64,000 nucleotides of DNA from Escherichia coli phage vB_EcoM_Shy, in sequence record MT833282.1; one strand, written 5' to 3'. The notes beneath the pieces were generated by a model that was not told the origin of the DNA, did no database searches, and saw only the letters and a program-made list of their open reading frames with translations. Below, piece by piece: positions 4,131-29,615 of the stretch. The position numbers and the translations under genes are program-made. Numbering within the stretch: the first letter of the stretch is position 1; every line of letters begins with the position of its first letter.

Positions 4131-4803
4131 TGAAGTACTGTGCCATGCTTACGACTTGCATCCTCATGAGTTAGGTCTTGATTCCTGTGTATGGACTCCA
4201 GAACAGTGCAGAGATTTTGAAGATACTGCAAGAGAAGTTGTATGTTCACTTGAAGAGTTCCACACATCAGAACCAATTGTGAACGTTGTGGACAAAGAGA
4301 CTGGACAATCTATAGGTGTAAGACGTGACAGTTTAGTCATAGTCAATAAAGACCTTGTAGAAAAAGGTAACCTCATCTTAGCAGATATTGATGGTGTTCT
4401 TACAAATTTTAATCACGAAGATTGCTCAACGGAACTGATTGATGGGTCATTTTCACAGTACACTAATTTGCTTGACTCTGTAAGTGCAAAACCAACGTAT
4501 GTTTTCAATATTATTGATGCAATCTCTAATCATGCTGCCATTGGACTCTTGACAGCGAGAGGTGAATCTCAGAGAATACCTACTGAGATGTTTTTAAGGC
4601 ATTACATAGAGCATGATTACATGCTTTTTATGCGTGGTTTTGGAACTAACTCTATAAATGCAGAAAGTTTGAAAGTGAGGATGATTCAGTCTTGCATTCT
4701 TCCTTACTTTAATATAGTATGTTTTATAGAAGATACAGAGAAGAATGTTCAGAAGGTAAACAGAATCCTTCCGCACATTAAAACTATGTTAGTAAAACAT
4801 TGA
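4108..4803 (+). CDS. HAD-superfamily phosphatase-like protein
   Basis: 231-aa ORF with HAD motif I DxDGV (LILADIDGVLTNF); start overlaps upstream gene by 23 nt. Confidence 0.5.
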   Translation: MKKLRKSDEVLCHAYDLHPHELGLDSCVWTPEQCRDFEDTAREVVCSLEEFHTSEPIVNVVDKETGQSIGVRRDSLVIVNKDLVEKGNLILADIDGVLTNFNHEDCSTELIDGSFSQYTNLLDSVSAKPTYVFNIIDAISNHAAIGLLTARGESQRIPTEMFLRHYIEHDYMLFMRGFGTNSINAESLKVRMIQSCILPYFNIVCFIEDTEKNVQKVNRILPHIKTMLVKH

Positions 4804-6831: not shown

Positions 6832-7617
6832 ATGGGTATTGTAAAAATTATCAATGGGGATATCTTCTCAGCATTTGATAAAGGTAAGTTTGATATCATT
6901 GGTCACGGTTGCAACTGTATGAACTTAATGGGTGCAGGTATCGCTGACAAGATTTCTAAACTTTACCCAAAAGCATATGAGACTGATACAGAAGTTTATC
7001 TGTATGCAGGAGGTATAGGTCACAAACCCTGTGAAAATTTACTAGGCAATTTCTCTGTAGCACGTTTAGAACAAGGCCGTATAGCTAACCTTTACACTCA
7101 GCTTAAGACTGGTAAAGATGCCCGATATAGTGCTTTAGAGTCATCTTTGAAACAGCTTAACAGATACTGTGAAGTCAATCAGTTGAAGAAAGTTGGGTTA
7201 CCTATGATTGGTGCAGGTATCGGTGGACTAGACCCTCAAGCCGTCACGGTTATCATTAATCAGGTGATGAAGAGTGTAGATGTGTATCTGTATGTCTACG
7301 AAGGAGAGATGTACCACAAGTTACGCTCAGGTTGGAAGAACTACTGTGAACCAGAATACTTTGCAGGTGTAGTAGTGTTCACTGATGATGCAGTTACCCT
7401 CTTCAGACGAAGAAAAGGTAAGATACATCAAAGTAACCCTCCGGTTGAAAAGATGTCTCTAAGTAACGCTCTAGTTACCCACCTGTCGAAGAGCAATCAC
7501 AGAATTGCAGTAACATTTGGCAGTGATGCAGATACATATATCTATGCAAGAACTGATGAGGATGTTGAGGAAATTTTCTCTTCACCGGAAGTAACCTTCT
7601 TAGACGCAAAGAACTAA
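6832..7617 (+). CDS. macro-domain (ADP-ribose-binding/processing) protein
   Basis: 261-aa ORF; N-terminal DIIGHGCNCMNLMGAGIA and downstream GLPMIGAGIGGLDP resemble the two glycine-rich macro-domain motifs. Confidence 0.6.
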   Translation: MGIVKIINGDIFSAFDKGKFDIIGHGCNCMNLMGAGIADKISKLYPKAYETDTEVYLYAGGIGHKPCENLLGNFSVARLEQGRIANLYTQLKTGKDARYSALESSLKQLNRYCEVNQLKKVGLPMIGAGIGGLDPQAVTVIINQVMKSVDVYLYVYEGEMYHKLRSGWKNYCEPEYFAGVVVFTDDAVTLFRRRKGKIHQSNPPVEKMSLSNALVTHLSKSNHRIAVTFGSDADTYIYARTDEDVEEIFSSPEVTFLDAKN

Positions 7618-7682
7618 GAAACTCTGTAGAATATTCACAATAGGTTAAGCCTTTCTTATCTGGTAAATTTTTCAGGTAAGGA

Positions 7683-7890
7683 GGGCTTTTTCATTTCAGG
7701 ATTGTGCAGGTAGAGTTCTGGACAGAAATCTGTAGAGATAATTTTGAACTCCAAAGAGAAAATTCATTTTCAAACTGTGCAGGTAATCTCCAAAGAGCTT
7801 TTTCATTTTCAAAACGTGCAGACCCCGCTCAGGTCGGGCAAGAAAAATCATTTTAGAATTGTGCAGGTAGGTGGGTGCAGGTGGGGATGT
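7683..7890 (+). repeat. array of 4-5 direct repeats TTTCATTTTCA-N-TGTGCAGGTA
   Basis: copies near 7683-7712, 7761-7785, 7801-7823, 7848-7871 and 7872-7886; related TTGTGCAG at 3530 and CTTTTTCATTTCAGGA at 5306. Confidence 0.6.
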
Positions 7891-8045
7891 CGCCATTTCT
7901 CACAAGGCTACCACATCTGGAAATAAAAGTCAACAGAAAAATTTGTAGCGGATTGAAAAATAATTCTTGATTGTAGTTCTGTTTTGTGGTAGTCGCGTGC
8001 GCCCGTTTCATTACAGTTTTTGCAAAAATATTTTTAAAATTCCTA

Positions 8046-8074
8046 TTGACTCTTTGAATATGGTTATCTAATAT
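8046..8074 (+). promoter_or_regulatory. sigma70-like promoter (TTGACT-17-TAATAT)
   Basis: near-consensus hexamers with 17-nt spacer about 50 nt upstream of the 8125 ORF. Confidence 0.55.
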
Positions 8075-8124
8075 TTGCATCAGACGGGCAATCAAGCCCA
8101 CTTCCTAAACTGGAGAATCAAAAA

Positions 8125-8331
8125 ATGCTTTACAGTCGTGAATTGATGGTTACAACTAACGTTAACACAAAGGTAAAACGTTTTTATATGCAAGTGTGCG
8201 GCGCATGGCGTAGAATATCAGAAGCTGATTATTGCAACTATGTAGAAACGGCAATCAATTCTAATTGCTACCTTACGAAGAATACAAAGCGACATATAAA
8301 ACAGACAGCGGTTTACTATTACGATATATAA
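8125..8331 (+). CDS. hypothetical early protein
   Basis: 68-aa ORF, first of a string of small rightward ORFs. Confidence 0.4.
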   Translation: MLYSRELMVTTNVNTKVKRFYMQVCGAWRRISEADYCNYVETAINSNCYLTKNTKRHIKQTAVYYYDI

Positions 8332-8421
8332 AAAGTACTTTACAGGGGGCTTAAAAGCTGATATCTTAAGCCCCAGATAAAGAGCTTTACTTAATTAACC
8401 CTTAAACTAGGAGATTCAAAA
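8332..8421 (+). promoter_or_regulatory. type-A intergenic cassette (9-bp hairpin GGGGCTTAA/TTAAGCCCC at 8346-8374 plus conserved leader CCTTAAACTAGGAGATTCAAAA-ATG)
   Basis: near-identical unit recurs at 8803, 9185, 9788, 11050 and 11849; possible promoter CAGACA-17-TATATA overlaps the upstream stop. Confidence 0.55.
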
Positions 8422-8802
8422 ATGGCTTATCGTGCACCTAAATTCATCAACAAAGACAACTTTCGCAACGCACTGGAGAAGTCACTTGATGAAAATTTTA
8501 AAGGTAACATTATCGTTGTTCACGCATTCAATTTTAAGTATGATGTAAACGGGAATAGAATCAACCATTACACAGCAACCATGTTAGATGGTACGCTATC
8601 AAGTGAAAAAGCTGTACTGAATGCACTTGCAGGACGTGGTAAAAACCTGATAAGATGCGATAAGAGACGTTATCAGGGTGGCGCATATGGTTATGATGAT
8701 GCTGTTTATCATCTTGAAAATATGGGCTATTCAGTGGAAAAAGCTGGAGTGTCTCAAATAATCGGCAGTGACGGCTATGTGACAATTTTCAAAATTAACT
8801 AA
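8422..8802 (+). CDS. hypothetical early protein
   Basis: 126-aa ORF with cassette SD upstream. Confidence 0.5.
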   Translation: MAYRAPKFINKDNFRNALEKSLDENFKGNIIVVHAFNFKYDVNGNRINHYTATMLDGTLSSEKAVLNALAGRGKNLIRCDKRRYQGGAYGYDDAVYHLENMGYSVEKAGVSQIIGSDGYVTIFKIN

Positions 8803-8893
8803 TAAAGTACTTTACAGGGGGCTTATAGTTCGATAAAGTAAGCCCCAGATAAAGAGCTTTACTTAATTAACCCTTAAACTAGGAGATTCAAAA
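8803..8893 (+). promoter_or_regulatory. type-A intergenic cassette (hairpin 8817-8845)
   Basis: GGGGCTTA-13 nt-TAAGCCCC hairpin and conserved SD leader; candidate -35/-10 (TGACAA-17-TAAAGT) overlaps the upstream stop. Confidence 0.5.
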
Positions 8894-9184
8894 ATGGCTA
8901 TTATTAAAAACGTTGTAATTCCTGCAAAAACTCGTGATGACGCTCGCATCATGGCGAAAAAGTTAGGCGGGAAAGTGGTTGACAACGGAAAACAAACTGC
9001 TGTAAGGTGGAACGTGAAGGCGGATAAACAAATGAATTTAAAAAATTCACCAATAAACCTTTTTACATGTGTAAACACTATCGGGAAAACGAATGTATAC
9101 ACTAAAAAGGCATATATCAGACGCATCGCCATGACGTCACCTATTCGCACAATGAGAAGTCATGCAAAGCTGAGAATTAAGTAA
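8894..9184 (+). CDS. hypothetical early protein
   Basis: 96-aa basic ORF with cassette SD. Confidence 0.5.
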   Translation: MAIIKNVVIPAKTRDDARIMAKKLGGKVVDNGKQTAVRWNVKADKQMNLKNSPINLFTCVNTIGKTNVYTKKAYIRRIAMTSPIRTMRSHAKLRIK

Positions 9185-9274
9185 TAGAGTACTTTACAGG
9201 GGGCTTAAAAGCTGATATCTTAAGCCCCAGATAAAGAGCTTTACCACTCAATCCTTAAACTAGGAGATTCAAAA
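9185..9274 (+). promoter_or_regulatory. type-A intergenic cassette (hairpin 9199-9228)
   Basis: same hairpin and leader as 8332-8421. Confidence 0.5.
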
Positions 9275-9787
9275 ATGAAAACTGTAGACGCTACCTTTGA
9301 AGTTGTAAAAGAAAAATTTTCCATCATTTACGAAGCTGTCAATTGCTACGAAGCAAGCCATAATCTTGATAATTGGAAGTTTACAGATGACCATCAAGGC
9401 GGTGTGACTATTAAAAACCCCAACTGTCAGCGTAATGGATTTAAATATGCAATTCCTTTACATTACAGCCTTAAACAGCTTTCAATTGACTATGCAAAAC
9501 AAGGCCGGGAAAATCCATCGAAAGAGGCTTACATCAGCTTACAGAAAGAACTAGAAAGAGATTTAGAGGCTTCAGAATATAACATCGCCGCGAAAGTTGT
9601 AGATGCAAACGGTAGCACGGTTTTAGAGAGTTTTTATATTGGTTATGCTTTCGATTGGTGCTACAGTGACGGCGATGATTTAGATGACAGACTAAAAGAG
9701 GAAGTGAACAACGCAGACGCAGAATCTGAAGTATTAGAACGCTTGGAAGCATTAAAAGATTCAGTGATGAATATCTTTAAGAACTAA
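9275..9787 (+). CDS. hypothetical early protein
   Basis: 170-aa acidic ORF with cassette SD. Confidence 0.5.
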   Translation: MKTVDATFEVVKEKFSIIYEAVNCYEASHNLDNWKFTDDHQGGVTIKNPNCQRNGFKYAIPLHYSLKQLSIDYAKQGRENPSKEAYISLQKELERDLEASEYNIAAKVVDANGSTVLESFYIGYAFDWCYSDGDDLDDRLKEEVNNADAESEVLERLEALKDSVMNIFKN

Positions 9788-9878
9788 ATAGACCTCTTTA
9801 CACGGGGCTAACAAGCGGATATGATAGCCCCAGATAAAGAGATTTATCAAATTAACCCTTAAACTAGGAGATTCAAAA
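9788..9878 (+). promoter_or_regulatory. type-A intergenic cassette (hairpin GGGGCTA/TAGCCCC 9804-9831)
   Basis: stem conserved while loop sequence differs from the other copies. Confidence 0.5.
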
Positions 9879-10175
9879 ATGAAATTATCAAATAAAGTTA
9901 GGGAAAACCTTAGCAAATTACTCAACAAAATTGATTTTATAGAGACATCAAGGAATAGTCATGATGTTATGGAATGGTTACACGGCAAAATAAAAGGCCG
10001 TCGTGTAGTGATTTGCTTATGGAATAGTTGCAGGGAGTATAAAAAGCCTGTATTGCAAATTAATGTTTATGATGATACTTTTAAAAGTCCTGTAAAGTCT
10101 AAAAGCGATTTATTAGAATCCTATGAGATAACTGTAAATGGCAAAGTATCACGTAAAGAGGAAACACCATGTTAA
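9879..10175 (+). CDS. hypothetical early protein
   Basis: 98-aa ORF with cassette SD. Confidence 0.5.
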   Translation: MKLSNKVRENLSKLLNKIDFIETSRNSHDVMEWLHGKIKGRRVVICLWNSCREYKKPVLQINVYDDTFKSPVKSKSDLLESYEITVNGKVSRKEETPC

Positions 10176-10501
10176 TGACTGGTATCACTGCAATCATTGC
10201 CATTTTCGCGCTATATAAGGCATATAAAGCCTATAATCTAGCAAATAAGGCAATCACACAGCAAGTTAGCAATAACCTTGTAGAGAGCTTTCTAGGGCGT
10301 TTAAGTGATGAGCAAATAAAGCGGCTAGAGATGAGCTTCAGATATAAAGCGAAAACCTATCAGATAAGTGACATCTTCAAAGATGATTTCCAGTTAGTTG
10401 ATGATTATAATTCTCTGATAAATGCTTTAAACATCAGTGACTTGAAAGACTATCACGCTGTAATTGTTCAAGAATTGAGCAAACGAAAACAAAGTGTTTG
10501 A
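10169..10501 (+). CDS. hypothetical protein with N-terminal hydrophobic segment
   Basis: 110-aa ORF overlapping the previous gene by 7 nt; N-terminus LMTGITAIIAIFALY looks membrane-associated. Confidence 0.45.
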   Translation: MLMTGITAIIAIFALYKAYKAYNLANKAITQQVSNNLVESFLGRLSDEQIKRLEMSFRYKAKTYQISDIFKDDFQLVDDYNSLINALNISDLKDYHAVIVQELSKRKQSV

Positions 10502-10592
10502 CACTGATTTTTAGATAGGTTAAATTACACATCAACGGGGAGGGGATGACCTTCCCCACTAAATAAAGTCCTTAAACTAGGAGATTCTAAAA
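10498..10592 (+). promoter_or_regulatory. type-B intergenic cassette: promoter TTGACA-17-TAAATT (10498-10526), 5'-UTR hairpin (10537-10557), conserved SD leader
   Basis: -35 overlaps the upstream stop codon; hairpin GGGGAGG/CTTCCCC; same architecture at 11551, 12799, 13362, 13960 and 14290. Confidence 0.6.
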
Positions 10593-10751
10593 ATGTTTTG
10601 TGCAGGTGATAAAGTTGTCTGGAATGATATAGATGACGGTTTATGTACGAAAGTTGTTGTTATCTTAGAAATTGATTATATCACTGGTGTTGCAACTGTA
10701 GCAGATAATGATATAATCTTTGATGTCTTAATTAGTGAACTGTCAAAATAA
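10593..10751 (+). CDS. small hypothetical protein (52 aa)
   Basis: ATG 9 nt after AGGAG of the conserved leader; below the ORF-track size cut-off; translated by eye. Confidence 0.4.
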   Translation: MFCAGDKVVWNDIDDGLCTKVVVILEIDYITGVATVADNDIIFDVLISELSK

Positions 10752-10777
10752 AGTCCTTAAACTAGGAGATTCAAAAA

Positions 10778-11049
10778 TGTACACTACTAACAACGGTCGC
10801 ACCTTAAACGTAACCCTACGCCACTATGTGAACGGTGTAATGCACTTCGAGGATTTACAAGCTGAACAGCACATTTTGGATTGGCAACTTGCAGGATTCC
10901 AAAAAACTGCTACCGGATACGGGAAAAAGATTCCAACTAGCTGGAAAGTATACTACGAAGGCCGTTTGCGTAGAATTTATCAAGATGTATGCGGCAATAG
11001 TGCATCAAGTTACATCATAGTAAAAGGCAAAAAGCTGCATTTAGCATAA
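10778..11049 (+). CDS. hypothetical early protein
   Basis: start re-assigned to the ATG after the conserved leader (AGGAGATTCAAAA-ATG); the track ORF 10735-11049 begins upstream inside the leader. Confidence 0.5.
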
Positions 11050-11134
11050 AGTACTTTACAAGGGGCTTATAGTTCGATAAAGTAAGCCCCAGATAAAGAG
11101 CTTTATCACTCAATCCTAAATTGGAGATTCTAAA
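11050..11134 (+). promoter_or_regulatory. type-A intergenic cassette (hairpin 11062-11090)
   Basis: GGGGCTTA-TAGTTCGATAAAG-TAAGCCCC plus leader variant AATTGGAGATTCTAAA-ATG. Confidence 0.5.
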
Positions 11135-11539
11135 ATGGCTATTAATAACCGTGAGTTATCAATCTTAAAAGCACGTTTGACCGTTAATCGGATTAATGTT
11201 ATTACATCATCAGCACCGGATGAGACATTGCACAACATTATCGGGAAGATTCAAAGTGTTATCTTAGACGTTGAAAACGTAAAAAACTCACTGGCTGACG
11301 TTGCAGCAGGTATCACGCTAGACGGTGCACAATATGAAATGGCTGACATGTTAGGCAAATCTAAGGTAATGAATAAAGAGTTAGACTTGAAAATGTTTAG
11401 ATTTGCTGTTAAAGTGTGGCTATCTGTCGAGTATGACGCAAATTTTGCAATCGCTGACTTTTTCGCAACATGGTTGCAACGTAATTTAACAAATCATGAT
11501 TTCCGTGATGTCTGTGATGCAATTTATGCGGAACTCTAA
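11135..11539 (+). CDS. hypothetical early protein
   Basis: 134-aa ORF with cassette leader. Confidence 0.5.
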   Translation: MAINNRELSILKARLTVNRINVITSSAPDETLHNIIGKIQSVILDVENVKNSLADVAAGITLDGAQYEMADMLGKSKVMNKELDLKMFRFAVKVWLSVEYDANFAIADFFATWLQRNLTNHDFRDVCDAIYAEL

Positions 11540-11550
11540 AAAAAAAACTG

Positions 11551-11644
11551 TTGACACTGATTTTTAGATATATTAAATTACGCATTAACGGGGAGGGAAT
11601 GAACTTCCCCACTAAGTAAAGTCCTTAAACTAGGAGATTCTAAA
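11551..11644 (+). promoter_or_regulatory. type-B intergenic cassette: promoter TTGACA-17-TAAATT (11551-11579), hairpin 11590-11610
   Basis: near-identical to the 10498 copy. Confidence 0.6.
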
Positions 11645-11848
11645 ATGGCTATTATTAACGGCTTAACCATTGAAACAACACACATCAAAGACATTAAAGT
11701 TGGTGATGTAGTCCTTTCCCACGGCGTAGAGAAAACTGTTACTGCAAAGGATATTAAAGAGGATTCTTTCATGGGTAGGACTCTCTTCGGTGATTCTTAT
11801 TGCTTGGGTTATCTTGCAGTTTTAAAAGTTGTCAAAAATAACCGTTAA
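11645..11848 (+). CDS. hypothetical early protein
   Basis: 67-aa ORF with cassette leader. Confidence 0.45.
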   Translation: MAIINGLTIETTHIKDIKVGDVVLSHGVEKTVTAKDIKEDSFMGRTLFGDSYCLGYLAVLKVVKNNR

Positions 11849-11940
11849 AGTACTTTACAAGGGGCTTATAGTTCGATAAAGTAAGCCCCAGATAAAGAGC
11901 TTTACCACTCAATCAAGTCCTTAAACTAGGAGATTCAAAA
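11849..11940 (+). promoter_or_regulatory. type-A intergenic cassette (hairpin 11861-11889)
   Basis: same hairpin and leader as the 11050 copy. Confidence 0.5.
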
Positions 11941-12504
11941 ATGAAATGCTATCACGGCACTACTCTGAAAAACTTTGTAAACCTGCTGAATGGTGGCGAC
12001 AAGCCTGAAGGAATCTGGAACTGCTCCTACATGGATGATTGTTTCTACGTTTACCCAATGAACAAGGTTATCAAAACGGAATGTCTGGAAGATGAGGAAG
12101 ATTCTTATATCCGTGAACGCTGCATTCAAAGCGCCTTAGAGTCTGGACTTATTACGGCAGCTTTCCAAATGGAAACGCAGGAAGTGATTGTTATCGAAAT
12201 GGATATCCCAGAGGAAGAACTTGAGGACGATTATTCTTGTGACAACATGAGCGAAATTGCCAGCTTTACCGGATACTTTGATAAGAATTGGATTATCGGT
12301 ATACACTCGACGAAATTTAGTGCGATGTATGCGCCTTTCTTTGTACCGGATACAACTAACCGTAATTTAGGATATATTGACGATGATTTGTTAAGTATGG
12401 CGAAAATTGTACAGAATAACGGTGATAGTTCCGTGTTTTGTGACCTACTTGATAAAATCACGGCAAACATCACAGAACGCAATTTAAAAGACTTTTTAGG
12501 TTAA
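11941..12504 (+). CDS. hypothetical early protein
   Basis: 187-aa acidic ORF with cassette leader. Confidence 0.5.
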   Translation: MKCYHGTTLKNFVNLLNGGDKPEGIWNCSYMDDCFYVYPMNKVIKTECLEDEEDSYIRERCIQSALESGLITAAFQMETQEVIVIEMDIPEEELEDDYSCDNMSEIASFTGYFDKNWIIGIHSTKFSAMYAPFFVPDTTNRNLGYIDDDLLSMAKIVQNNGDSSVFCDLLDKITANITERNLKDFLG

Positions 12505-12567
12505 TCAGTACAAAGACACCAACTTCCAACTTAAGGCCCGTACAGGGCCATTTAGAGGGCTTCAATC

Positions 12568-12801
12568 ATGCTTACAACCATTTACCTCATCCTTTCCATT
12601 TGTAATGGTCATTCATGCGATTTTAAAGGGCTTGAGGAGTTTACAGGGAGTAAAGAAAATGTTATTCATGCCTGTCAGATAGCAAGGCAAGACTATCCCG
12701 CCAGTGATGATATACAATGTTACTTTAAGACAGAAGATAATGACGGCGTTTATTTTGATAGCGTAGACGGTCAATATGAAATTATCATTGAAAAAGACTA
12801 G
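12568..12801 (+). CDS. hypothetical small protein with hydrophobic N-terminus
   Basis: 77-aa ORF; N-terminus MLTTIYLILSICNG resembles a signal or anchor. Confidence 0.4.
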   Translation: MLTTIYLILSICNGHSCDFKGLEEFTGSKENVIHACQIARQDYPASDDIQCYFKTEDNDGVYFDSVDGQYEIIIEKD

Positions 12802-12890
12802 ACAAGCCTGATAAAAGTCTGTAAATTGTCAATCAACGGGAGGTAATAACCCCCCCACTAAGTAAAGTCCTTAAACTAGGAGATTCAAAA
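12799..12890 (+). promoter_or_regulatory. type-B intergenic cassette: promoter TAGACA-17-TAAATT (12799-12827) plus leader
   Basis: -10 TAAATT overlaps the upstream stop codon; weaker GGGAGG/CCCCC hairpin. Confidence 0.5.
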
Positions 12891-13232
12891 ATGGCTTATG
12901 TAACCGTAATTACCGATAAAGCTGGCTCATCTTGGTCAACTCAAGTCAGTGATAAGATGTCACCTATGCAGTGCCTAAAATACTTTGAGCAATGGAACAA
13001 AGGCGAGGATGTCAGCCCCTTTCAAGTAATGCAGATTATCCATACAGATAACGAAGGGAATAAAACTGTTTTGAATAGTGAGTACTACGCAACCCGATTT
13101 GAAACGAGATGTAAAGCAATGAAGCTTTTGCGTGAGTCTGGTTATTCTCATATTGCCTCACTAATCTGGAATGACCTGCTAAAAAATCAGCGTATCAGCT
13201 ATGTAAAACCTGAAAAAATATTCATCAGTTAA
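12891..13232 (+). CDS. hypothetical early protein
   Basis: 113-aa ORF with cassette leader. Confidence 0.5.
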   Translation: MAYVTVITDKAGSSWSTQVSDKMSPMQCLKYFEQWNKGEDVSPFQVMQIIHTDNEGNKTVLNSEYYATRFETRCKAMKLLRESGYSHIASLIWNDLLKNQRISYVKPEKIFIS

Positions 13233-13264
13233 TCAATAACTTACAAAAAACTTTTTAAAAAGCA

Positions 13265-13293
13265 TTGACAATACCCCTTGACATTGGTAAATT
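13265..13293 (+). promoter_or_regulatory. orphan promoter TTGACA-17-TAAATT with no ORF immediately downstream
   Basis: consensus -35 twice (13265, 13278) and TAAATT at 13288; next start codon is 160 nt away behind a second promoter. Confidence 0.45.
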
Positions 13294-13361
13294 TGTTCGA
13301 GGGGGTTTATCTAAAAGGGATTAACTTAAAAGATTCTTTATAGATAAGCTTAAAAAATTGC

Positions 13362-13454
13362 TTGCAATCAGATATCAAAACAAGTAAATTACTAATCAAC
13401 GGGAGGTAATAACCTCCCCACTAAGTAAAGTCCTTAAACTAGGAGATTCAAAAA
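13362..13454 (+). promoter_or_regulatory. type-B intergenic cassette: promoter TTGCAA-17-TAAATT (13362-13390), hairpin GGGAGG-TAATAA-CCTCCC (13401-13418)
   Basis: hairpin stem differs from other copies by compensatory changes. Confidence 0.55.
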
Positions 13455-13985
13455 ATGAACAAGTTCAAAGCTATAAACTTCATTCGTTCAAATAGTGTTA
13501 TGTCAAAGCCTGTTAAAGACACCTATGAATTTCGTTGCAATGGGGTGCATTTTGCAACCATCACCAAATCAGAAAACGGAGCTTATTACATCCATCGCCG
13601 TAATGTTGCAACCGTTGTTGTCTCTCATTTTATGCAAGCTGTCGCGGAACTTCTCCCGATGTTTTTAGGGCTTTACTTGGATGAGTGTAAAAACGTTCAC
13701 AATCACGTTAAAAACCTTTTAAACAGCTATAAAATGGCTTATGAACGTTCTATCAAGTCATTGAACAAGTTTTACAACGCACCTGAAAACACTGTGTCAA
13801 TAGCCTATGGTGTAAGCGGTGAAATGGTAAACTTATCCAATGTGGAAGAAATCAAGCTGCATGATTTACGCCCTAACGGTTACGCTAAAACCATCGGTGA
13901 AGGTTTAACTTTCAATATCAAGAACTTAGAAAAAACTTTAAAAGATATTGAAAAAGATATTGACGAGACAATCAAAAGTCTGTAA
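13455..13985 (+). CDS. hypothetical early protein
   Basis: 176-aa ORF with cassette leader. Confidence 0.5.
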   Translation: MNKFKAINFIRSNSVMSKPVKDTYEFRCNGVHFATITKSENGAYYIHRRNVATVVVSHFMQAVAELLPMFLGLYLDECKNVHNHVKNLLNSYKMAYERSIKSLNKFYNAPENTVSIAYGVSGEMVNLSNVEEIKLHDLRPNGYAKTIGEGLTFNIKNLEKTLKDIEKDIDETIKSL

Positions 13986-14051
13986 ATTGTCAATCAACGG
14001 GGAGGGAATGACCTTCCCCACTAAGTAAAGTCCTAAACTGGAGTTATCAAG
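13960..14051 (+). promoter_or_regulatory. type-B intergenic cassette: promoter TTGACG-17-TAAATT (13960-13988), hairpin 13999-14019
   Basis: -10 overlaps the stop codon of the upstream gene. Confidence 0.55.
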
Positions 14052-14315
14052 ATGGAAAACGTCGAACTGACCACACTTTTACAAATTGCAACCGACAAAG
14101 AGGATGTAGCATTATTCCACCGTATCGAAAGTGATTTGTTCAATGGTGAAATCATTAAAGAATCTTACGAAGTGGTCGGATTCAAAGATGGTAAATCATT
14201 TGGATTCTTTGACCTCGACAAAGGCAACGCTATTACAAAGTATGATGTTTTATCTTGTGAGATTCTGACAAAATACAACGAAAAAAGACTTGCAACATAC
14301 GCCAACATGCAGTAA
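14052..14315 (+). CDS. hypothetical early protein
   Basis: 87-aa ORF with SD GGAG. Confidence 0.45.
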   Translation: MENVELTTLLQIATDKEDVALFHRIESDLFNGEIIKESYEVVGFKDGKSFGFFDLDKGNAITKYDVLSCEILTKYNEKRLATYANMQ

Positions 14316-14380
14316 ATTACTAATCAACGGGAGGGATGACCTCCCTACTAAATAAAGTCCTTAAACTAGGAGATTCTAAA
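14290..14380 (+). promoter_or_regulatory. type-B intergenic cassette: promoter TTGCAA-17-TAAATT (14290-14318), hairpin GGGAGG/CCTCCC (14329-14346)
   Basis: same architecture as the other type-B copies. Confidence 0.55.
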
Positions 14381-14629
14381 ATGGCAACTATCCGCGCAAT
14401 TGTAAATTCTTATGGCTGCTACACTCTGGACGTTAAATTTGATATAGGTGGGACCGATGAGTGTTTCGAACTGGTGAAAACAGTCATTAAACAAGTTATC
14501 CCAGACTATAACCCTACTGATGACTTCTGGAAAGATGCAGTAAAAGAGGCGTTGAACGATGAATATCATTACCATTATTGGGGTGATTTGATTGTCTCCC
14601 TGTACTACAATAAACAAGGTTGCAACTAA
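14381..14629 (+). CDS. hypothetical early protein
   Basis: start re-assigned to the ATG after the conserved leader; the track ORF 14336-14629 starts inside the leader. Confidence 0.5.
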   Translation: MATIRAIVNSYGCYTLDVKFDIGGTDECFELVKTVIKQVIPDYNPTDDFWKDAVKEALNDEYHYHYWGDLIVSLYYNKQGCN

Positions 14630-14667
14630 TCGGCGCAACGGGGCTAAATAGCCCCAGATACCTTTAC

Positions 14668-14715
14668 AGCCCCTTTATATTGATTCGATAGAATCTATCT
14701 CATAGGGGCTTTTTT
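14668..14715 (+). terminator. rho-independent terminator closing the rightward early block
   Basis: long hairpin AGCCCCT...AGGGGCT enclosing palindrome GATAGAATCTATC, followed by TTTTTT. Confidence 0.6.
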
Positions 14716-16304
14716 ACGTCTTATCGAATACCTGTACAACCCTTTCCCTTTCCTTTCCAGAATCTATCCCACTGATTCGATAGTGATTCAGGTAATGAAT
14801 TACCTTCATAGAATCTATCTCATACCTTAAAAGCAATAACTCTATAGCTTACTCTATAGCCCCTTATCAAATCAACTTAAATATAAGCCCATAACCCGAA
14901 AGGGAAGGGCAACCATTTAAACGCTCTATAAAGCCCTATAACAGCCTTATCAACCTAACTTAAGGGATTGCATTACCTCACCCTTAAAATCCCTTTATAA
15001 AGCTTCCCAGAGCCTTAAAAGAATCTTATAAGGGTGTAAGCTTTATTATCTCGTTAGCTATCTTGTGAATGGTTAAACAACCCCTTGATAGTAACTGAAA
15101 AGTATGTTATAGGGGCTATAAAGTTACTTTGAAGTAGTTTAAAAGTTACTTAAAAGTTACGTAAATGCTAGCCCCCTTAACATTTTCTTAACAATTTCTT
15201 AACAAACCCTACATAGTTATGCTCTTAAGGCACTTGTTAGCAACTTGTTAGCCCCTTGTTAAATCTCTGTTAAAACCACGTAAAAGCCTTGTAAGAGTCT
15301 TTGGCATAGCCTTGAAAGCTTCTGTAAAGCCCTATAAATAGCTTTCTGTATAGTTGGGGTGTAATTACTAGAAAGAGACTAAAAAGAGCTTATAAGGAGC
15401 TATAAAGGGCTTTTAAGAGGGCTATTTAAAGAGTCACTAAGAGGGAAAGGGAACGATAAGAAAAGAGATAGTGACCATGTTAATAGCTTGTTAAAAAGAT
15501 TAAACACTTGTTAGGAACTTGTTAATTATCTTAACAAAATAACTCTTTAAAATTAACTTGTTAGCTCTTGTTAGTCATCTGTTAAGACTCTGTAAAGACT
15601 ATGCAGCAACTGTTAAGAAACTGTTAAGTTCTTGTTAGTTCTGTTAAGAATCTGTTAAGACCTCTGAAGAGATGTTAAGAAGATGTAGTAACTGTTAAGA
15701 GATTGTTAAGGATATTTTAAAATTCTGCAAAGGGGATGTTACAGGGATGTTAAGGGCTACCAAGCAGATATACATCTTCTACAGATATTTTTGAGTTCCT
15801 TCAAAGACCCTAAAAAATGACTTGATAGTCCTATTTTATAAAAATTTTAAAATTCTGAATAATTACCTATACAGTCTTTTAAAAATACAGGCATAAACAG
15901 GCTTATAAGATACCTTGTTAGTACCGTGTTAGACCTTGTGAGATAAGGTCTGTAAAGATATTCCTGTTAAGTTTGTTAAAACAGTCTATATAGAGGCTTA
16001 GTAATACCTAGTGAACACCTATAGAGGGTAACATAGCTGACATAGAGATTAAGGGGTGTATAGGAGCTTCTAAGAGGCTATAGAGAGATGGTTAAGGTGA
16101 TTGTATAGGTTGTTAAGAATGCTTGTTAGAAGAGTGTTTAGAAGGGCTATACAGAGGGGCTATTAAGACCACTAGATAGATACTAAGATACTATATAGTA
16201 CTATATAACTATATAGAGAGTAAGCTTAAGAAGGTTGTTAAGAAGGTTAGATATTTTATTCACATATGATGGTGACCCAGAGGTTGGGACAACCGATAAA
16301 ATTT
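14716..16304. repeat. 1.6-kb ORF-free repeat-dense region between convergent transcription units
   Basis: no ORF of 60 aa or more in any frame per the supplied track; several families of short repeats (CTATAAAG, AAAGTTAC, CTATATA, TTAAGAGGG, GGGCTA..TAGCCC palindromes). Confidence 0.7.
15186..15755. repeat. dense array of more than 20 short direct repeats with core TGTTA(A/G) (CTTGTTAG / CTGTTAAGA)
   Basis: e.g. ACTTGTTAGCAACTTGTTAGCCCCTTGTTAAATCTCTGTTAAAA and AACTGTTAAGAAACTGTTAAGTTCTTGTTAGTTCTGTTAAGAATCTGTTAAGA; spacing about 8-12 bp. Confidence 0.7.
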
Positions 16305-21996: not shown

Positions 21997-23381
21997 TATG
22001 CCTCCCCTGCTGGGTTAACTGTAACTGTTGCCGCATTAGATGTTACAGAGCCACCTGCACCAGTCACTACACAAGTGTAGCTTCCTGCATCAGCAGCAGT
22101 TGCACCTTCTTTGGTGTAAGTTGCAGTCGTTGCGTCTGGGATAACTTCCTCACCTTTCTTCCACTGGTAACCTGTTGCACCAGTTGCCACAACATTCAGC
22201 GTTAAGGTCTCACCTTCAGTGATTTCTTGATTGACTGGTTGTTGAGTGATGACTGGAAGAGCATTAACGGTAACAGTTGCAGCATTAGATGTTACTGTTG
22301 TACCACCTGCACCAGTAACTACACAGGTATATGAACCAGCATCGGCAGGGTCTGCTTTAGCTTTCGTGTAAGTTGCACCAGTTGCGCTAGGGATGTTCAC
22401 GTTGTCTTTCTTCCATTGATAACCTGTTGCACCTGTGGCCTCAATACTCAGCGTCAAACTGCCACCTTCATTGACTACTTGGTTAGTTGGCTGCTTGGTA
22501 ATAACTGGCAAAGCATTTACCGTGACAGTTGCAGGGTTAGAAGTAACAGAACCTCCAGCACCAGTTACAACGCAAGTGTAAGAACCTGCATCTGCTGGAA
22601 GCGCACCAGATTTGCTATAGTTAGCATTTGTAGCTGATGGGATGTCAGAGCCATCTTTCTTCCATTGGTAGCCTGTTGCACCTGTTGCAGTAACTGATAA
22701 TTCAATGTTTCCACCTTCATTAATGGTCTGGCTAGAAGGTTGCTGTGTAATCACAGGTAGTGCGTTAACAGTAACCGTTGCCGCATCTGAGGTAACACTT
22801 GTCCCCGCCTCTCCAGATACAACACAAGTGTATGAGCCAGCGTCAGAAGGAACTACAGATTGTTTTGTATAAGTTTCAGATGTGGCACTGGAGATATCCT
22901 CACCATCCTTCTTCCATTGATAACCAGTGGCATTAGTTGCGAGAACGCTTAGGGTAAGTGTTCCACCCTCATTGACTGTTTGGTTTGTCGGTTGCTGAGT
23001 AATTACTGGTGGCTTAATAGCATCCTTCAGCTTAGCATTCAACATTGAAAATGGCTTAACTCTTGCCAACCATTCACAATACACCGTGTCAACGTCTTTA
23101 CCATTGATAATTGCATATTGTAAATCCATGAAGAAGTCAGAAGTTCTCATTTGAGCACCGACGCTGTAAAGCAAATCATCACTAAAAGGAACTTTGTAGT
23201 CTGGTTTGTAGTCAAACTTCTTAACTTCTGCGATATCAGCTTCAGGCCAATATGAGCTATAGGTGAGTGGTAAAATAGCTTCTTGATATGTTCTAAAATC
23301 ATATCTCTTACCAGCCTTTACATTTGCGATGAAGCCCTTCACAAATTCTTTGAAGTCTGGGTAAGTCTTTGCTTTAATCAT
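21996..23381 (-). CDS. Ig-like-domain repeat protein (four tandem Ig-like modules), possibly virion decoration or adhesin
   Basis: 461-aa ORF; about 200-aa N-domain then four repeats of about 90 aa (ALPVITQQP...ATGATGYQWKKDG...DAGSYTCVVTGAGG...ATVTVN), also visible as about 270-bp DNA repeats. Confidence 0.6.
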   Translation of the reverse strand: MIKAKTYPDFKEFVKGFIANVKAGKRYDFRTYQEAILPLTYSSYWPEADIAEVKKFDYKPDYKVPFSDDLLYSVGAQMRTSDFFMDLQYAIINGKDVDTVYCEWLARVKPFSMLNAKLKDAIKPPVITQQPTNQTVNEGGTLTLSVLATNATGYQWKKDGEDISSATSETYTKQSVVPSDAGSYTCVVSGEAGTSVTSDAATVTVNALPVITQQPSSQTINEGGNIELSVTATGATGYQWKKDGSDIPSATNANYSKSGALPADAGSYTCVVTGAGGSVTSNPATVTVNALPVITKQPTNQVVNEGGSLTLSIEATGATGYQWKKDNVNIPSATGATYTKAKADPADAGSYTCVVTGAGGTTVTSNAATVTVNALPVITQQPVNQEITEGETLTLNVVATGATGYQWKKGEEVIPDATTATYTKEGATAADAGSYTCVVTGAGGSVTSNAATVTVNPAGEA

Positions 23382-27040: not shown

Positions 27041-27117
27041 CTCTGTTTAGCTCAGCTTGGTAGAGCGTTCCGTTTGGGGCGGTAAGGTCGGAGGTTCAAG
27101 TCCTCCAACAGAGACCA
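27041..27117 (+). tRNA. tRNA-Pro (anticodon UGG)
   Basis: hand-folded cloverleaf: acceptor CTCTGTT/AACAGAG, D-arm GCTC..GAGC, anticodon loop TTTGGGG, T-arm GGAGG-TTCAAGT-CCTCC, CCA encoded. Confidence 0.7.
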
Positions 27118-27124
27118 AATTAAT

Positions 27125-27202
27125 GTTCCAGTAGACAAAATGGTAAAGTCACCACTCTTTCAAAGTGGATATTTGAGGGTTCAAATCCCTTCTGGAACGC
27201 CA
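27125..27202 (+). tRNA. tRNA-Glu (anticodon UUC)
   Basis: acceptor GTTCCAG/CTGGAAC, anticodon stem-loop CCACT-CTTTCAA-AGTGG, T-loop TTCAAAT. Confidence 0.7.
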
Positions 27203-27209
27203 GTTTTGA

Positions 27210-27282
27210 CAGAAGACCAATTACAGCAAGTTTAATCTTATTCATCTGACACGAAATCGGACAAAGAAGAGATTTGGTCTGG
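27210..27282 (+). ncRNA. structured spacer element A (CAGAAGACC...TwCAGCAA...GGTCTGG family)
   Basis: conserved 5' CAGAAGACCAATTACAGCAA and 3' TTGGTCTGG forming a 7-bp helix (AGACCAA/TTGGTCT); occupies the whole tRNA-Glu/tRNA-Met spacer. Confidence 0.45.
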
Positions 27283-27293
27283 TCATTAAGAAT

Positions 27294-27370
27294 TGCGGGT
27301 ATAGAGAAAGGGCGTCTCACATGTCTCATTAGCATGGTATCGGCAGGTTCGACTCCTGCACCCGCCTCCA
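27294..27370 (+). tRNA. tRNA-Met-like (anticodon CAU)
   Basis: anticodon stem-loop CATGT-CTCATTA-GCATG, T-arm GCAGG-TTCGACT-CCTGC, acceptor with mismatched first pair; Met versus Ile(CAU) not decidable by eye. Confidence 0.55.
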
Positions 27371-27376
27371 ATTTTG

Positions 27377-27436
27377 CAGAAGACCGTATTCAGCAACAAA
27401 CTACTTTTTGCGGATAAAAGAAAAAACACGGTCTGG
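27377..27436 (+). ncRNA. structured spacer element B (same family)
   Basis: CAGAAGACCGTATTCAGCAA ... ACGGTCTGG; helix AGACCGT/ACGGTCT shows compensatory changes relative to element A. Confidence 0.45.
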
Positions 27437-27447
27437 CAATGTATTAA

Positions 27448-27524
27448 GGTTAGGAAGCACATAAGGTATGTGCGGTCGCCTGTTAAGCGAATGGCACAGG
27501 GTTCGAATCCCTGACTAACCGCCA
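27448..27524 (+). tRNA. tRNA-Asn (anticodon GUU)
   Basis: D-arm GCAC..GTGC, anticodon loop CTGTTAA, T-arm CAGGG-TTCGAAT-CCCTG, CCA encoded. Confidence 0.7.
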
Positions 27525-27595
27525 AATTTAGGAGAGAAGCGATTGCTCACCGATTTGTAAGGTGCAAGTCCTTAGCCTGAATAGAATAATAAAAT

Positions 27596-27683
27596 GTGTC
27601 GTTATCCCGTAGATGGTAGCGGTGGGGACTGTAAATCCCTTGTCATTGAGACTCGGTAGGTTCGACTCCTACACGGCACACCA
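27596..27683 (+). tRNA. tRNA-Tyr (anticodon GUA), long variable arm
   Basis: acceptor GTGTCGT/ACGGCAC, anticodon loop CTGTAAA, 88 nt with extended variable arm, T-loop TTCGACT. Confidence 0.65.
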
Positions 27684-27689
27684 AATAAA

Positions 27690-27767
27690 GGTTATGTAGT
27701 TTAATCTGGTTAAAATACTCCCCTGTCACGGGAGATGATGAGGGTTCAAATCCCTTCGTAACCGCCA
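27690..27767 (+). tRNA. tRNA-Asp (anticodon GUC)
   Basis: acceptor GGTTATG/CGTAACC, anticodon stem-loop CTCCC-CTGTCAC-GGGAG, T-loop TTCAAAT. Confidence 0.7.
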
Positions 27768-27853
27768 AATTATAATAAGTATTTCAAAATGATGTTTGAG
27801 AGGGCTATTTAGCCCCTCCCTTAAAGAGTTCTTACGAGTATTCTTTAAAGGAG

Positions 27854-27926
27854 CAGAAGACCAAATTCAGCAAGAACGTATGAAATTTCAAGCCAATTTA
27901 ATTTTGAAAATTTAAACTTGGTCTGG
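27854..27926 (+). ncRNA. structured spacer element C (same family)
   Basis: CAGAAGACCAAATTCAGCAA ... CTTGGTCTGG, 7-bp helix AGACCAA/TTGGTCT. Confidence 0.45.
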
Positions 27927-27939
27927 CTCAACAAATTTA

Positions 27940-28071
27940 CAGAAGACCGTTTACAGCAAAACTTAAACAATCTATTTCTCCGGTAAAGAAAAGGCGAAGG
28001 TTCGATTCCTTCACTCGGCAGATGTCGAGTTGGTGTAATGGTAGCACTTAAGATGATAAACAATGGTCTGG
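27940..28071 (+). ncRNA. structured element D with circularly permuted tRNA-like domain (Y-RNA-like candidate)
   Basis: 5' CAGAAGACCGTTTACAGCAA and 3' CAATGGTCTGG helix enclose T-arm (GAAGG-TTCGATT-CCTTC, 27996-28012), closed acceptor-like hairpin (ACTCGGC-AGAT-GTCGAGT, 28013-28030) and D-arm (GTGT-AATGGTA-GCAC, 28033-28047); order is T-arm, acceptor, D-arm. Confidence 0.5.
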
Positions 28072-28072
28072 T

Positions 28073-28209
28073 AATTATCTTTGTAGATAAGTTATTAAGC
28101 TTCCCTGTGAGTATGCGACCACAAAGGTGAAAGGGTAGATTCTAGATTTAACCCGAAAAGACACATCGCTACAGACCTTAAGCAAGTCTGGGTAGCTTAT
28201 CTACAAAGA
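28073..28209 (+). ncRNA. long hairpin element E (18-bp perfect inverted repeat enclosing about 100 nt)
   Basis: ATTATCTTTGTAGATAAG (28073-28090) is the exact reverse complement of CTTATCTACAAAGATAAT (28192-28209); interior contains CAGACC..GTCTGG hairpin. Confidence 0.45.
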
Positions 28210-28218
28210 TAATTTAAT

Positions 28219-28294
28219 GGAAGTGTAGCAGAATGGTGATGCGGCAGACTTTTAATCTGACAGGCGATGGGTTCGAATCCCTCCACTTCTACCA
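28219..28294 (+). tRNA. tRNA-Lys (anticodon UUU)
   Basis: acceptor GGAAGTG/CACTTCT, anticodon loop CTTTTAA, T-loop TTCGAAT with weak T-stem; CCA encoded. Confidence 0.6.
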
Positions 28295-28298
28295 ATAT

Positions 28299-28375
28299 GG
28301 TTCAGTCGCAGATAAGGTAATGCAGGGGTTTCATAAGCCCTATGAATGTGGGTTCGATTCCCATCTGAACCTCCA
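28299..28375 (+). tRNA. tRNA with anticodon CAU (Met or Ile-lysidine type)
   Basis: acceptor GGTTCAG/CTGAACC, anticodon loop TTCATAA, T-arm GTGGG-TTCGATT-CCCAT. Confidence 0.6.
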
Positions 28376-28376
28376 A

Positions 28377-28452
28377 GCTGGTATAGTTAAGAAGGTTATA
28401 ACACTCCCCTGATAAGGGAATATCGGTGGTTCGATTCCACCTACCAGTACCA
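28377..28452 (+). tRNA. tRNA-Ile (anticodon GAU)
   Basis: anticodon loop CTGATAA, T-arm GGTGG-TTCGATT-CCACC, acceptor GCTGGTA/TACCAGT. Confidence 0.65.
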
Positions 28453-28476
28453 ATCTCAATAAAGTTGTTGACATTA

Positions 28477-28505
28477 AGATGTGACCACTTTATAGTAACT
28501 AAAAT
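28477..28505 (+). promoter_or_regulatory. sigma70-like promoter TTGACA-17-TATAGT inside the tRNA array
   Basis: consensus -35 and good -10; downstream 280 nt has no tRNA and no credible ORF. Confidence 0.5.
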
Positions 28506-28787
28506 ACTTCATAATATGTATAATTCAAACACCAATACATGAGCGTTAGACGTAACACAATGTGGGGAAATTTGTTGTACATATTCTGAATAGTTTTCGT
28601 TGCGTAGCGTCTATTTTGCAAATTTAAAATAAATGCAAACGACAATGTTTTCTGGCAGTAGCTTGATAGGCTAAACACCAGTGAGGTCTTCCAATCCCTC
28701 ATCAAAGAATTTGGCGTACTCGCCCACGGTATGATTAATAAGGTGGGCATCTTTAAGGGCTTTCTAAGAGAGCCTTTAAAGATTAAT

Positions 28788-29089: not shown

Positions 29090-29102
29090 AAGTCTTATTA
29101 GG

Positions 29103-29526: not shown

Positions 29527-29533
29527 AATTAAT

Positions 29534-29609: not shown

Positions 29610-29615
29610 AGCATT

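Follow-up and report, generated by a model that had tools for sequence, protein, structure and literature searches.

The early genes of phage T7 are separated by the sites R0.3, R0.5, R1, R1.1 and R1.3, at which the transcript is processed by RNase III. In T4-type phages the promoter-early stem-loops (PeSLs) have been described (Arbiol et al. 2010, PMC2839356; Comeau et al. 2014, PMC4122927). Here we analyse a stretch of 64,000 nucleotides (the window) of Escherichia coli phage vB_EcoM_Shy (record MT833282.1), a Felix O1-like myovirus of the genus Felixounavirus, subfamily Ounavirinae, in which most genes of an array of small genes are preceded by reiterated intergenic cassettes of two types, A and B. 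This architecture is of the PeSL kind in another phage subfamily and is not categorically new; its notable twist is the predicted Type A promoter, embedded in a three-helix stem-loop that, according to the folding models, only read-through RNA can form. In the genome paper of Felix O1 (PMC3185647) the organisation and timing of transcription of this phage are stated to be unknown, and the Type A core and Type B promoter appear there simply as 57-bp and 39-bp direct repeats, not interpreted as promoters, structures or recombination sites. The paper on phage wV8 is silent on promoters and repeats, the record of phage AYO145A has only two promoters annotated, and that of phage Mordin marks the leader as an unexplained 14-nt repeat. 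Our literature search found no paper linking PeSLs to Felix O1-like phages, none describing these cassettes as promoter/stem-loop modules and no start-site or transcriptome study of the genus.

The array lies at 8.0-14.4 kb and is composed of 16 small ORFan genes (g03-g18), all on one strand and bounded by two terminators. The 18-nt leader CCTTAAACTAGGAGATTC has 11 exact copies, all on the plus strand and all within 8400-14376, against 0.06 expected from shuffled sequence, and the variant CCTAAA(C/T)TGGAG precedes three more genes: g03 (8104), g11 (11115) and g17 (about 14033). The reiterated cassettes with a shared leader reported in an earlier note on this DNA are present where it had placed them, and its count of about twelve small genes standing behind one of two cassette types agrees with ours, six genes having Type A and six Type B (Table 1). 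Each of the hallmark sequences, TAAGCCCCAGATAAAGAG for Type A and CCCCACTAAGTAAAGTCC for Type B, has six copies, and both are absent from the rest of the 64 kb on either strand. The full cassettes, about 90 bp each, all point the same way and stand in constant register with the stop and start codons, with (A/T)GGAG as the Shine-Dalgarno (SD) sequence 8-9 nt 5' of the ATG in 12/12. The remaining four genes are g03, with a diverged B-like cassette, g10, with the leader only, g14, with a different hairpin and SD, and g08 (10169-10501), which overlaps g07 and is without a cassette of its own.

A scan for sigma70 promoters gives a score of at least 9/12, in the same register, to all six Type A and to four of the six Type B copies, and the two Type B copies below that score have TTGCAA-17-TAAATT. 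The promoter pattern is matched 17 times against 0.99 expected, a figure that is descriptive, as the pattern was derived from these very copies. The idea that each gene is an independent unit can be kept for most of the array: as judged by predicted promoters, 12 of the 16 genes possess a full cassette and g03 has an additional promoter-like site. The last gene was reassigned to the ATG at 14381, which stands behind an SD, from the in-frame ATG at 14336, which falls in the hairpin loop.

For comparison, 55 copies of Type A were collected from the window and nine Felixounavirus relatives, and further ones from Citrobacter phage Mordin (Mooglevirus), phiSUSP1 (Suspvirus) and Erwinia phage Panisse (Kolesnikvirus), which made 13 genomes of four genera; Type B yielded 39 distinct variants from 12 of the 13, none having been picked up in the Erwinia phage. 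In Type B the hexamers TTGACA, TTGACG, TTGCAA or TAGACA and TAAATT, 17 nt apart, are followed by a 6-8-bp hairpin with the stem GGGGAGGG/CCUUCCCC. The first paired base is 10 nt past the -10 hexamer in 36 variants and 11 nt past it in three (39/39), which upholds the proposed order of a promoter followed by a hairpin at the predicted 5' end. With a start predicted 7-8 nt past the -10, the hairpin would begin about 3 nt into the transcript, at about +3/+4, and a role of this 5' untranslated region (UTR) in message stability is therefore reasonable; the hairpin would also occur within read-through RNA. The plus strand folds better in 26 variants and the minus strand in 12 (Wilcoxon p = 0.0009), with a mean shuffle z score of -4.7.

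Two other claims about Type B stand in part. Its stem was said to be kept by compensatory changes; in the window the changes are mostly paired indels and G.U pairs, with one A.C mismatch (12838-12856), and replacement of the stem becomes clear only once the relatives are added, the 39 variants having 18 distinct stems. The -10 was said to overlap the upstream stop codon, and it does in two of the six copies (13983 and 14313), whereas two others have the stop within the -35 (TGA at 10499, TAG at 12799) and two promoters are fully intergenic.

Type A had been described as a 9-bp hairpin with variable loops, and its promoter had been missed. A consensus scan, however, finds TTTACA-17-TAnnnT in 6/6 copies in the same register, and the supposedly variable loop holds the -10 hexamer. 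Among 31 distinct Type A cores from the 13 genomes, T1 and A2 of this hexamer are invariant and T6 is at least 90 % conserved, while positions 3-5 and the other loop columns vary freely, giving the forms TATCTT, TAAAGT, TATGAT, TAAGAT, TAGGAT, TAGAGT, TACAGT, TAGTAT and TAATCT. Read from the aligned cores, conservation of this kind is the pattern of a sigma70 -10 element and not that of a hairpin loop.

The 9-bp hairpin does exist, but it is only the tip of a three-helix stem-loop of about 57 nt that was missed in the earlier note. When each whole Type A intergenic region was folded, the free energy (dG) of the structure was -23.4 to -25.6 kcal/mol, with z scores of -3.2 to -4.8. The outer helix, AAAGU/GCUUU, is continued by a middle helix, CUUUA/UAAAG, the 5' strand of which takes in most of the -35 hexamer and the 3' strand of which is a strictly conserved box, AGATAAAGAG; above it stand a 3x3 internal loop, the 9-bp inner helix, whose stem GGGGCUUAA/UUAAGCCCC covers the spacer and the -10, and an 11-nt loop containing the -10. 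The same three helices were predicted independently by RNAalifold from 42 distinct sequences. Bases are paired in 94.2 % of the alignment cells, compared with 33-55 % when the partner is slid by 1-3 columns. Seven sequences have a double change of G-C to U-A at pair 7-57 and four, all of the Erwinia phage, have one at pair 20-44; the U.G pairs at 8-56 (35/42) and 22-42 (20/42) would be A.C mismatches on the other strand. The G.U pairs and the few double changes point to structures of the plus-strand RNA. The invariance of the box that pairs with the -35 copy would be explained by the fixation of the 5' strand of the middle helix by the promoter.

Because the -10 is in the loop and the predicted start is at the 3' edge of the stem, the Type A hairpin falls outside the 5' UTR of its own gene, and the structured 5' UTR that had been assigned to every gene can be retained for Type B and not for Type A. 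A transcript from the embedded promoter would lack the 5' strands of all three helices, and the complete structure would consequently be formed only in read-through RNA. Nor does Type A resemble a 5'-terminal stabiliser, its stem being 5' of the predicted start. Canonical terminators were rejected as an explanation for either type, since the 3' flanks, AGAUAAAGAG in Type A and ACUAAGUAAAG in Type B, contain no U-tract, and termination or attenuation is accordingly not predicted by the canonical rule. A middle promoter of the T4 MotA type in the Type A leader (GCTTTA, 11-13 nt, TAAACT) was rejected as well: its start would fall 3' of the SD, and Type B has TAAACT without the GCTTTA box. As a third reason, the Felix O1 authors found no polymerase-modifying proteins (PMC3185647); MotA/AsiA homologues were not searched for here. 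In Citrobacter phage Mordin two tandem Type A promoter/stem-loop units stand at about 4131-4273 with no gene between them; judged by its sequence, this empty cassette resembles a trace left by a deletion or by an insertion that was not completed.

As the junction sequences tell, the cassettes are also the crossover points of gene gain and loss, a property absent from the earlier note. In 10 arrays the gene order is strictly collinear, and presence or absence differs for g03, g04-05, g06, g09, g12-14 and g17, every one of these differences being bounded by cassettes. Three-way alignments revealed chimeric cassettes in six events (g17 twice, g06, g09, g12-14 and g04-05): where the gene is lacking, the one cassette present agrees in its 5' part with the left cassette of a gene-bearing phage and in its 3' part with the right one, and the switch point is inside shared sequence, mostly in the interval from hairpin to SD. 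The g09 unit, which has direct repeats of the shared leader on both sides, is missing from 5/10 relatives, with the junction within the leader, and g17 is missing from 4/10, each with a chimeric cassette. In AYO145A the g03 promoter is joined to a canonical Type B hairpin and placed before g04. Being about 85 % identical over about 90 bp, paralogous cassettes are suitable substrates for homologous recombination. Pervasive concerted evolution of the cassettes within a genome was tested and not found; three genome-private variants common to paralogous cassettes indicate local conversion, as far as these alignments go.

The anatomy of the cassettes, their conservation, the plus-strand-specific pairing and the chimeric junctions are what we observe. 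We consider it probable that each cassette is an early host-polymerase unit provided with an insulating and stabilising RNA hairpin and that cassettes of both types serve as recombination sites. The parts would follow one another in the order of upstream stop codon, host sigma70 promoter, G/C-rich stem-loop, fixed SD leader and ATG. In Type B, transcription would start about 7-8 nt past the -10, and the hairpin would shield the 5' end of its own message from decay. Type A, whose fold is limited to read-through RNA, would for that reason act on the upstream message, by attenuation of read-through and/or by processing and 3'-end protection, and this action would insulate neighbouring units. In both types homologous recombination would delete, insert or swap whole modules of a cassette plus a gene. 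Promoter activity, start sites and the effects of the hairpins on RNA we infer from the sequences. End-point reverse transcription PCR (RT-PCR) of Felix O1 shows the homologues of g06, g11, g15 and g16 peaking at 5 min post infection.

Several points weigh against this reading. The same RT-PCR data, crude end-point assays, put the homologues of g07, g10 and g18 at 25 min, and the literature search found no measured transcription start, promoter activity or RNA end in this phage group. The covariation events are few and phylogenetically clustered, the shuffle control is uncorrected for relatedness, and the middle helix of Type A, being invariant, offers no covariation evidence. A scan for terminators finds none inside the array, only at its boundaries. 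With respect to recombination, paralogs within a genome are 85.3 % identical and non-orthologs between genomes 84.6 %, and orthologous cassettes, at 91.3 %, track the adjacent coding sequence (91.0 %); in the 10 collinear arrays there is only in-place loss or gain and no relocation to new sites, and selection against gene-breaking indels would also put the breakpoints between genes.

The downstream gene's own transcript might instead carry both hairpin types in its 5' UTR, where they would control its stability, processing or translation. Such a role fits Type B, with its hairpin 10-11 nt past the -10, and all the hairpins do stand directly 5' of the fixed SD leader, but the only conserved promoter-like element of Type A has its -10 in the hairpin loop, and what lies 5' of AAAGTACTTTACA is the variable 3' end of the preceding gene, so that there is no conserved promoter further 5'; we hold a common 5'-UTR role for both types to be improbable. 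A special case of the reading we prefer, that of host-polymerase units with RNA hairpins, would make the Type A stem-loop an RNase III processing site like the early ones of T7. A cut in the 3x3 internal loop would yield monocistronic messages, the upstream one being left with a 3' hairpin and the downstream one with a 5' end nearly the same as that from the embedded promoter. The lower helix of Type A (5+5(6) bp), its 3x3 internal loop and its upper helix (9 bp), at -23 to -26 kcal/mol, are comparable with T7 R0.5, which under the same folding shows helices of 8 bp below and 10 bp above an internal loop (dG -24.4, z -3.4), and both kinds of site are reiterated between early genes. However, there is no sequence similarity to the T7 sites, the upper stem with four consecutive G-C pairs by the internal loop and the 11-nt loop are unlike those of T7, with 6-8 bp the Type B hairpins fall short of what RNase III needs, and cleavage of Type A is a prediction; this special case therefore appears to us rather unlikely, if still the most credible of the alternatives. 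More speculative, and in our estimate unlikely, is a combination in which Type A is both a DNA promoter and an RNase III-type site in read-through RNA, with the same mRNA 5' end either way, and cassettes are actively exchanged among co-infecting Ounavirinae, through mini-circles or a hairpin-binding protein, in an integron-like array. If this were true, each gene would yield one defined message however it is transcribed; a bifunctional module of this sort is not described for PeSLs.

The inverted repeats could also act in DNA, as operators at which a dimeric protein of phage or host shuts off the early promoters, or as cruciform or recombinase targets. The stretch from -35 to about +10 that the Type A inverted repeat occupies is where operators classically lie, most copies have a perfect palindrome, TAAAGTACTTTA, over the -35, and the PeSL authors speculated on a protein binding GGGG…CCCC. 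About half of the variants, however, have U.G or G.U in the stem, which breaks the DNA symmetry and is tolerated only on the plus strand; the Type B stems are more stable on that strand and their hairpins are 3' of the predicted start; and stems are replaced between genera with the pairing kept (GGGGC/GCCCC, GGTGT/GCACC, GAGGGG/CCCCTC), which would not be expected of a conserved binding site for a protein. The g07 variant is not palindromic at the -35 and is still complementary to the downstream box. A palindromic operator made of TAAAGTACTTTA at the -35 and, some 47 bp further 3', TAAAGAGCTTTA was set aside because the boxes are mutually complementary even in g07 and because the G.U pairs are strand-specific, and we give an action in DNA generally little credence. 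Least of all do we believe that the cassettes are selfish or neutral repeats, recombination scars or miniature mobile elements with no regulatory role. They are repeated and coincide with the gain/loss junctions, as such elements would, but every copy points the same way and is held in one register relative to the stop and start codons, conservation falls on exactly those positions that are critical for sigma70, pairing is kept across four genera, orthologous cassettes are conserved to the same degree as the coding sequence beside them, and the other strand and the rest of the window are free of copies.

Table 1. Cassettes and boundary elements of the g03-g18 array. Positions are those of the window; start sites are predicted from hexamer spacing; dG is in kcal/mol.
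Feature	Extent	Strand	Promoter elements	Hairpin or stem-loop	Predicted start	Leader or SD	ATG	dG; z	Other features
Left array boundary, intrinsic terminator	7647-7693	+		17-bp stem + T-run				-24.4; -6.8	
g03, first cassette, diverged B-like	8046-8127	+	TTGACT-17-TAATAT 8046-8074	weak, GGGC/GCCC, 8086-8099		leader CCTAAACTGGAGAATC	8125		
g04, Type A	8332-8424	+	-35 TTTACA 8339-8344; -10 TATCTT 8362-8367	stem-loop 8332-8388; inner hairpin 8346-8374	about 8374-8376	SD 8409-8413	8422	-23.4; -3.3	
g05, Type A	8804-8896	+	-35 8811-8816; -10 TAAAGT 8834-8839	stem-loop 8804-8860	8846-8848	SD 8881-8885	8894	-24.8; -3.2	
g06, Type A	9186-9277	+	-35 9193-9198; -10 TATCTT 9216-9221	stem-loop 9186-9242	9228-9230	SD 9262-9266	9275	-25.6; -3.4	
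g07, Type A variant	9788-9881	+	-35 9797-9802; -10 TATGAT 9820-9825	inner hairpin GGGGCTA/TAGCCCC 9804-9831	9832-9834		9879	-25.1; -4.8	outer helix of other sequence: AUAGA.CCUCUUUA paired to UAAAGAG.AUUUAU
g09, Type B	10498-10595	+	-35 TTGACA 10498-10503; -10 TAAATT 10521-10526	hairpin 10537-10557	about 10533-10535	SD 10579-10583	10593		g08 stop TGA within -35
g10, leader-only junction	10690-10779	+				shared leader AAAGTCCTTAAACTAGGAGATTC	10777		g09 stop (10749-10751) abuts leader
g11, Type A	11048-11137	+	-35 11055-11060; -10 TAAAGT 11078-11083	stem-loop 11048-11104	11090-11092	variant leader CCTAAATTGGAGATTC	11135	-24.3; -4.0	
g12, Type B	11551-11647	+	-35 TTGACA 11551-11556; -10 11574-11579	hairpin 11590-11610	11586-11588	SD 11632-11636	11645		
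g13, Type A	11847-11943	+	-35 11854-11859; -10 TAAAGT 11877-11882	stem-loop 11847-11903	11889-11891	A/B hybrid leader (…CACTCAATCAAGTCCTTAAAC…)	11941	-25.6; -4.2	
g14, third intergenic type	12535-12570	+	no promoter-like site	GGCCC-GUACA-GGGCC 12535-12549		SD GAGGG	12568		
g15, Type B	12799-12893	+	-35 TAGACA 12799-12804; -10 12822-12827	hairpin 12838-12856, degenerate copy, A.C mismatch	12834-12836		12891	-7.5 (hairpin)	g14 stop TAG inside -35
g16, long intergenic region with Type B	13265-13457	+	-35 TTGCAA 13362-13367; -10 13385-13390	hairpin 13401-13419	13397-13399		13455		
g17, Type B	13960-14054	+	-35 TTGACG 13960-13965 (inside g16); -10 TAAATT 13983-13988	hairpin 13999-14019	13995-13997	variant leader CCTAAACTGGAGTTATC	14052		g16 stop TAA within -10
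g18, Type B	14290-14383	+	-35 TTGCAA 14290-14295; -10 TAAATT 14313-14318	hairpin 14329-14346	14325-14327	SD 14368-14372	14381		g17 stop inside -10
Right array boundary	14640-14716	+		hairpin GGGGCUAAAUAGCCCC (14640-14655), then AGATACCTTTACA, then large-loop terminator					

Some junctions depart from the two standard forms. The leader-only gene g10 would be served by a promoter-like TTGCAA-16-TATAAT with an upstream TG (10690-10717) inside g09. At the place of the g14 hairpin, Mordin and SUSP1 have another one (AGCCCC/GGGGCU). The Type B cassette of g16 is preceded by an extra TTGACA-17-TAAATT (13265-13293) within a CCCC…GGGG hairpin (13274-13304), which is adjoined by a 45-nt hairpin (13305-13349); the segment 13233-13361 has a z score of -4.3, is conserved in Mordin and phiSUSP1 and, to judge from its predicted fold, may be a small RNA or a structured leader. 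The fixed leader itself can fold a weak hairpin, UCCU/AGGA, over the SD (10562-10592 and 10745-10776). Its alleles CCTT…AGG and CCT…GG differ by a paired insertion, and the leaders of the Erwinia phage have a change of U-A to C-G. This hairpin may be a translational element, albeit a thermodynamically marginal one, and as the reason for the fixed leader it was set aside, its energy being only -1 to -2.4 kcal/mol.

The region 8000-15000 is 96 % identical to Escherichia phage SME50 and is matched by 256 phage records, the names of which are nearly all Escherichia, Salmonella, Shigella, Citrobacter or Felixounavirus. The 16 array proteins have no Pfam family above the cut-off, their PHROG matches are all of "unknown function", and an Rfam search of 7500-15500 with E up to 1 returned no known RNA family. 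On the left the array is preceded by a terminator, the counterpart of t13 in Felix O1, at which the upstream operon ends past the macro-domain gene (6832-7617); this gene, labelled "phosphatase" in relatives, matches Pfam Macro (ADP-ribose-binding domain) with E = 1.2e-7. Four to five copies of TTTTCATTTTCAAnnTGTGCAGGTA, spaced by about 40-45 bp, are found at 7690-7900, in the 430-bp non-coding gap between that terminator and the first early promoter (8046). The element is present four times at the equivalent place in Erwinia phage Panisse (about 2600-2850) and is therefore kept across genera; from their arrangement, the copies could be iterons or binding sites of a regulator. In the right-hand boundary element (dG -32, z -4.1) the terminator (14668-14716; AGCCCCU…AGGGGCU, then U6), which is also annotated here in relatives, was missed by the consensus scan because its loop exceeds 8 nt. 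The segment AGATACCTTTACA at the array end holds Type A-like pieces in a changed order.

Elsewhere in the window, a cluster of 26 tRNA genes occupies 27041-32121 on the plus strand, Felix O1 being reported with 22. A second reiterated non-coding element, with no relation to the cassettes, is formed by several families of ACC-rich repeats, each about 85-117 nt long (ACCAAACCATACATTACCAGACC…AAAAGACCCTCTTTAAAGACC being one example), in the intergenic regions between minus-strand genes at 59600-60110 and 61200-61600. At 22015-23048 there are four tandem copies of a unit of about 250 nt, 61-76 % identical to the reference copy over 142 nt, which are probably repeated domains in a minus-strand structural gene.

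The cassette architecture of PeSL type is not peculiar to T4-like phages: an unrelated subfamily of large virulent phages has either evolved or retained it. The Ounavirinae are widely used for typing and biocontrol of Salmonella and E. coli, and for this group the present analysis offers a map of 13 predicted early promoters with predicted start coordinates, which is useful for the annotation of Felix O1-like biocontrol phages and explains why the gene content of this region differs among otherwise near-identical therapeutic phages. Compact modules of about 90 bp could furthermore be exploited in phage engineering as insulated expression units and as safe points of insertion or deletion.

Among the known systems, a dispersed conserved terminator was reportedly described in phage PhiEa21-4 by Lehman and colleagues in 2009; it is a canonical terminator and a different element from these cassettes. 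The likeness to the T7 RNase III sites lies in the reiteration of intercistronic stem-loops in an early region read by the host polymerase and in the succession of lower helix, internal loop and upper helix with similar energies. The irregular helix of about 20 bp found between T7 early cistrons fits Type A only, whereas the Type B stems of 6-8 bp do not conform to it; in contrast to Type A, the T7 sites do not each enclose a promoter of the gene that follows, and they differ in sequence and in loop and stem details. A 5'-terminal stem-loop, such as that of the ompA 5' UTR, is reported to protect E. coli mRNA, as well as phage mRNA, from 5'-end-dependent decay (work of Emory, Bouvet and Belasco in 1992). 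The Type B hairpin resembles this stabiliser in its position about 3 nt from the predicted 5' end, within the few unpaired nucleotides that are tolerated, and differs in being also part of read-through RNA; Type A does not fit. The morons of lambdoid phages, which are discussed in the PeSL paper, are likewise autonomous insulated expression modules for accessory genes, but they are single insertions with unrelated control sequences and do not form an array with a shared recombining cassette.

The PeSLs remain the closest parallel. Like them, the cassettes are reiterated between the small ORFans of a hyperplastic region, with 12 full and 2 partial copies in a 6.4-kb array, none elsewhere in the 64 kb, and a gene content that varies among relatives. 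The upstream stop codon stands in AT-rich sequence, in or by the hexamers; at the sequence level the promoter is of sigma70 type with a 17-nt spacer, and Type A shares its -35 form with the T4/PST consensus TTTACW-N17-TAYWAT. The stem-loop is of the GGGG…CCCC kind, includes G-T pairs and is located between -35 and -10, over the -10 (Type A) or 3' of the -10 (Type B), the 3' end carries the SD and ATG, and indels between relatives have their crossovers between -10 and ATG. The differences begin with the subfamily, Ounavirinae here, the PeSL authors having claimed their elements only for T4-likes. Type A grows into a fold of three helices and about 57 nt in which the RNA copy of the -35 is paired with a conserved downstream box, and the Type B hairpin comes after the predicted start, while that of PeSLs comes just before it. 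Promoter and terminator activity and mini-circles are part of the PeSL description, that of the present cassettes being drawn from their sequences, and the collinear order of the 10 arrays gives no sign of reinsertion elsewhere. A blastn search with Type A hit 287 phage records at 1411 places and one with Type B 239 records at 1207 places, the hits listed being Ounavirinae apart from a few oddly named, unchecked records; the window and every relative inspected belong to this subfamily too. Since blastn lists Ounavirinae and finds no sequence similarity to the T4-type PeSLs, the cassettes of vB_EcoM_Shy are to be regarded as an analogue of the PeSLs and not as their homologue.

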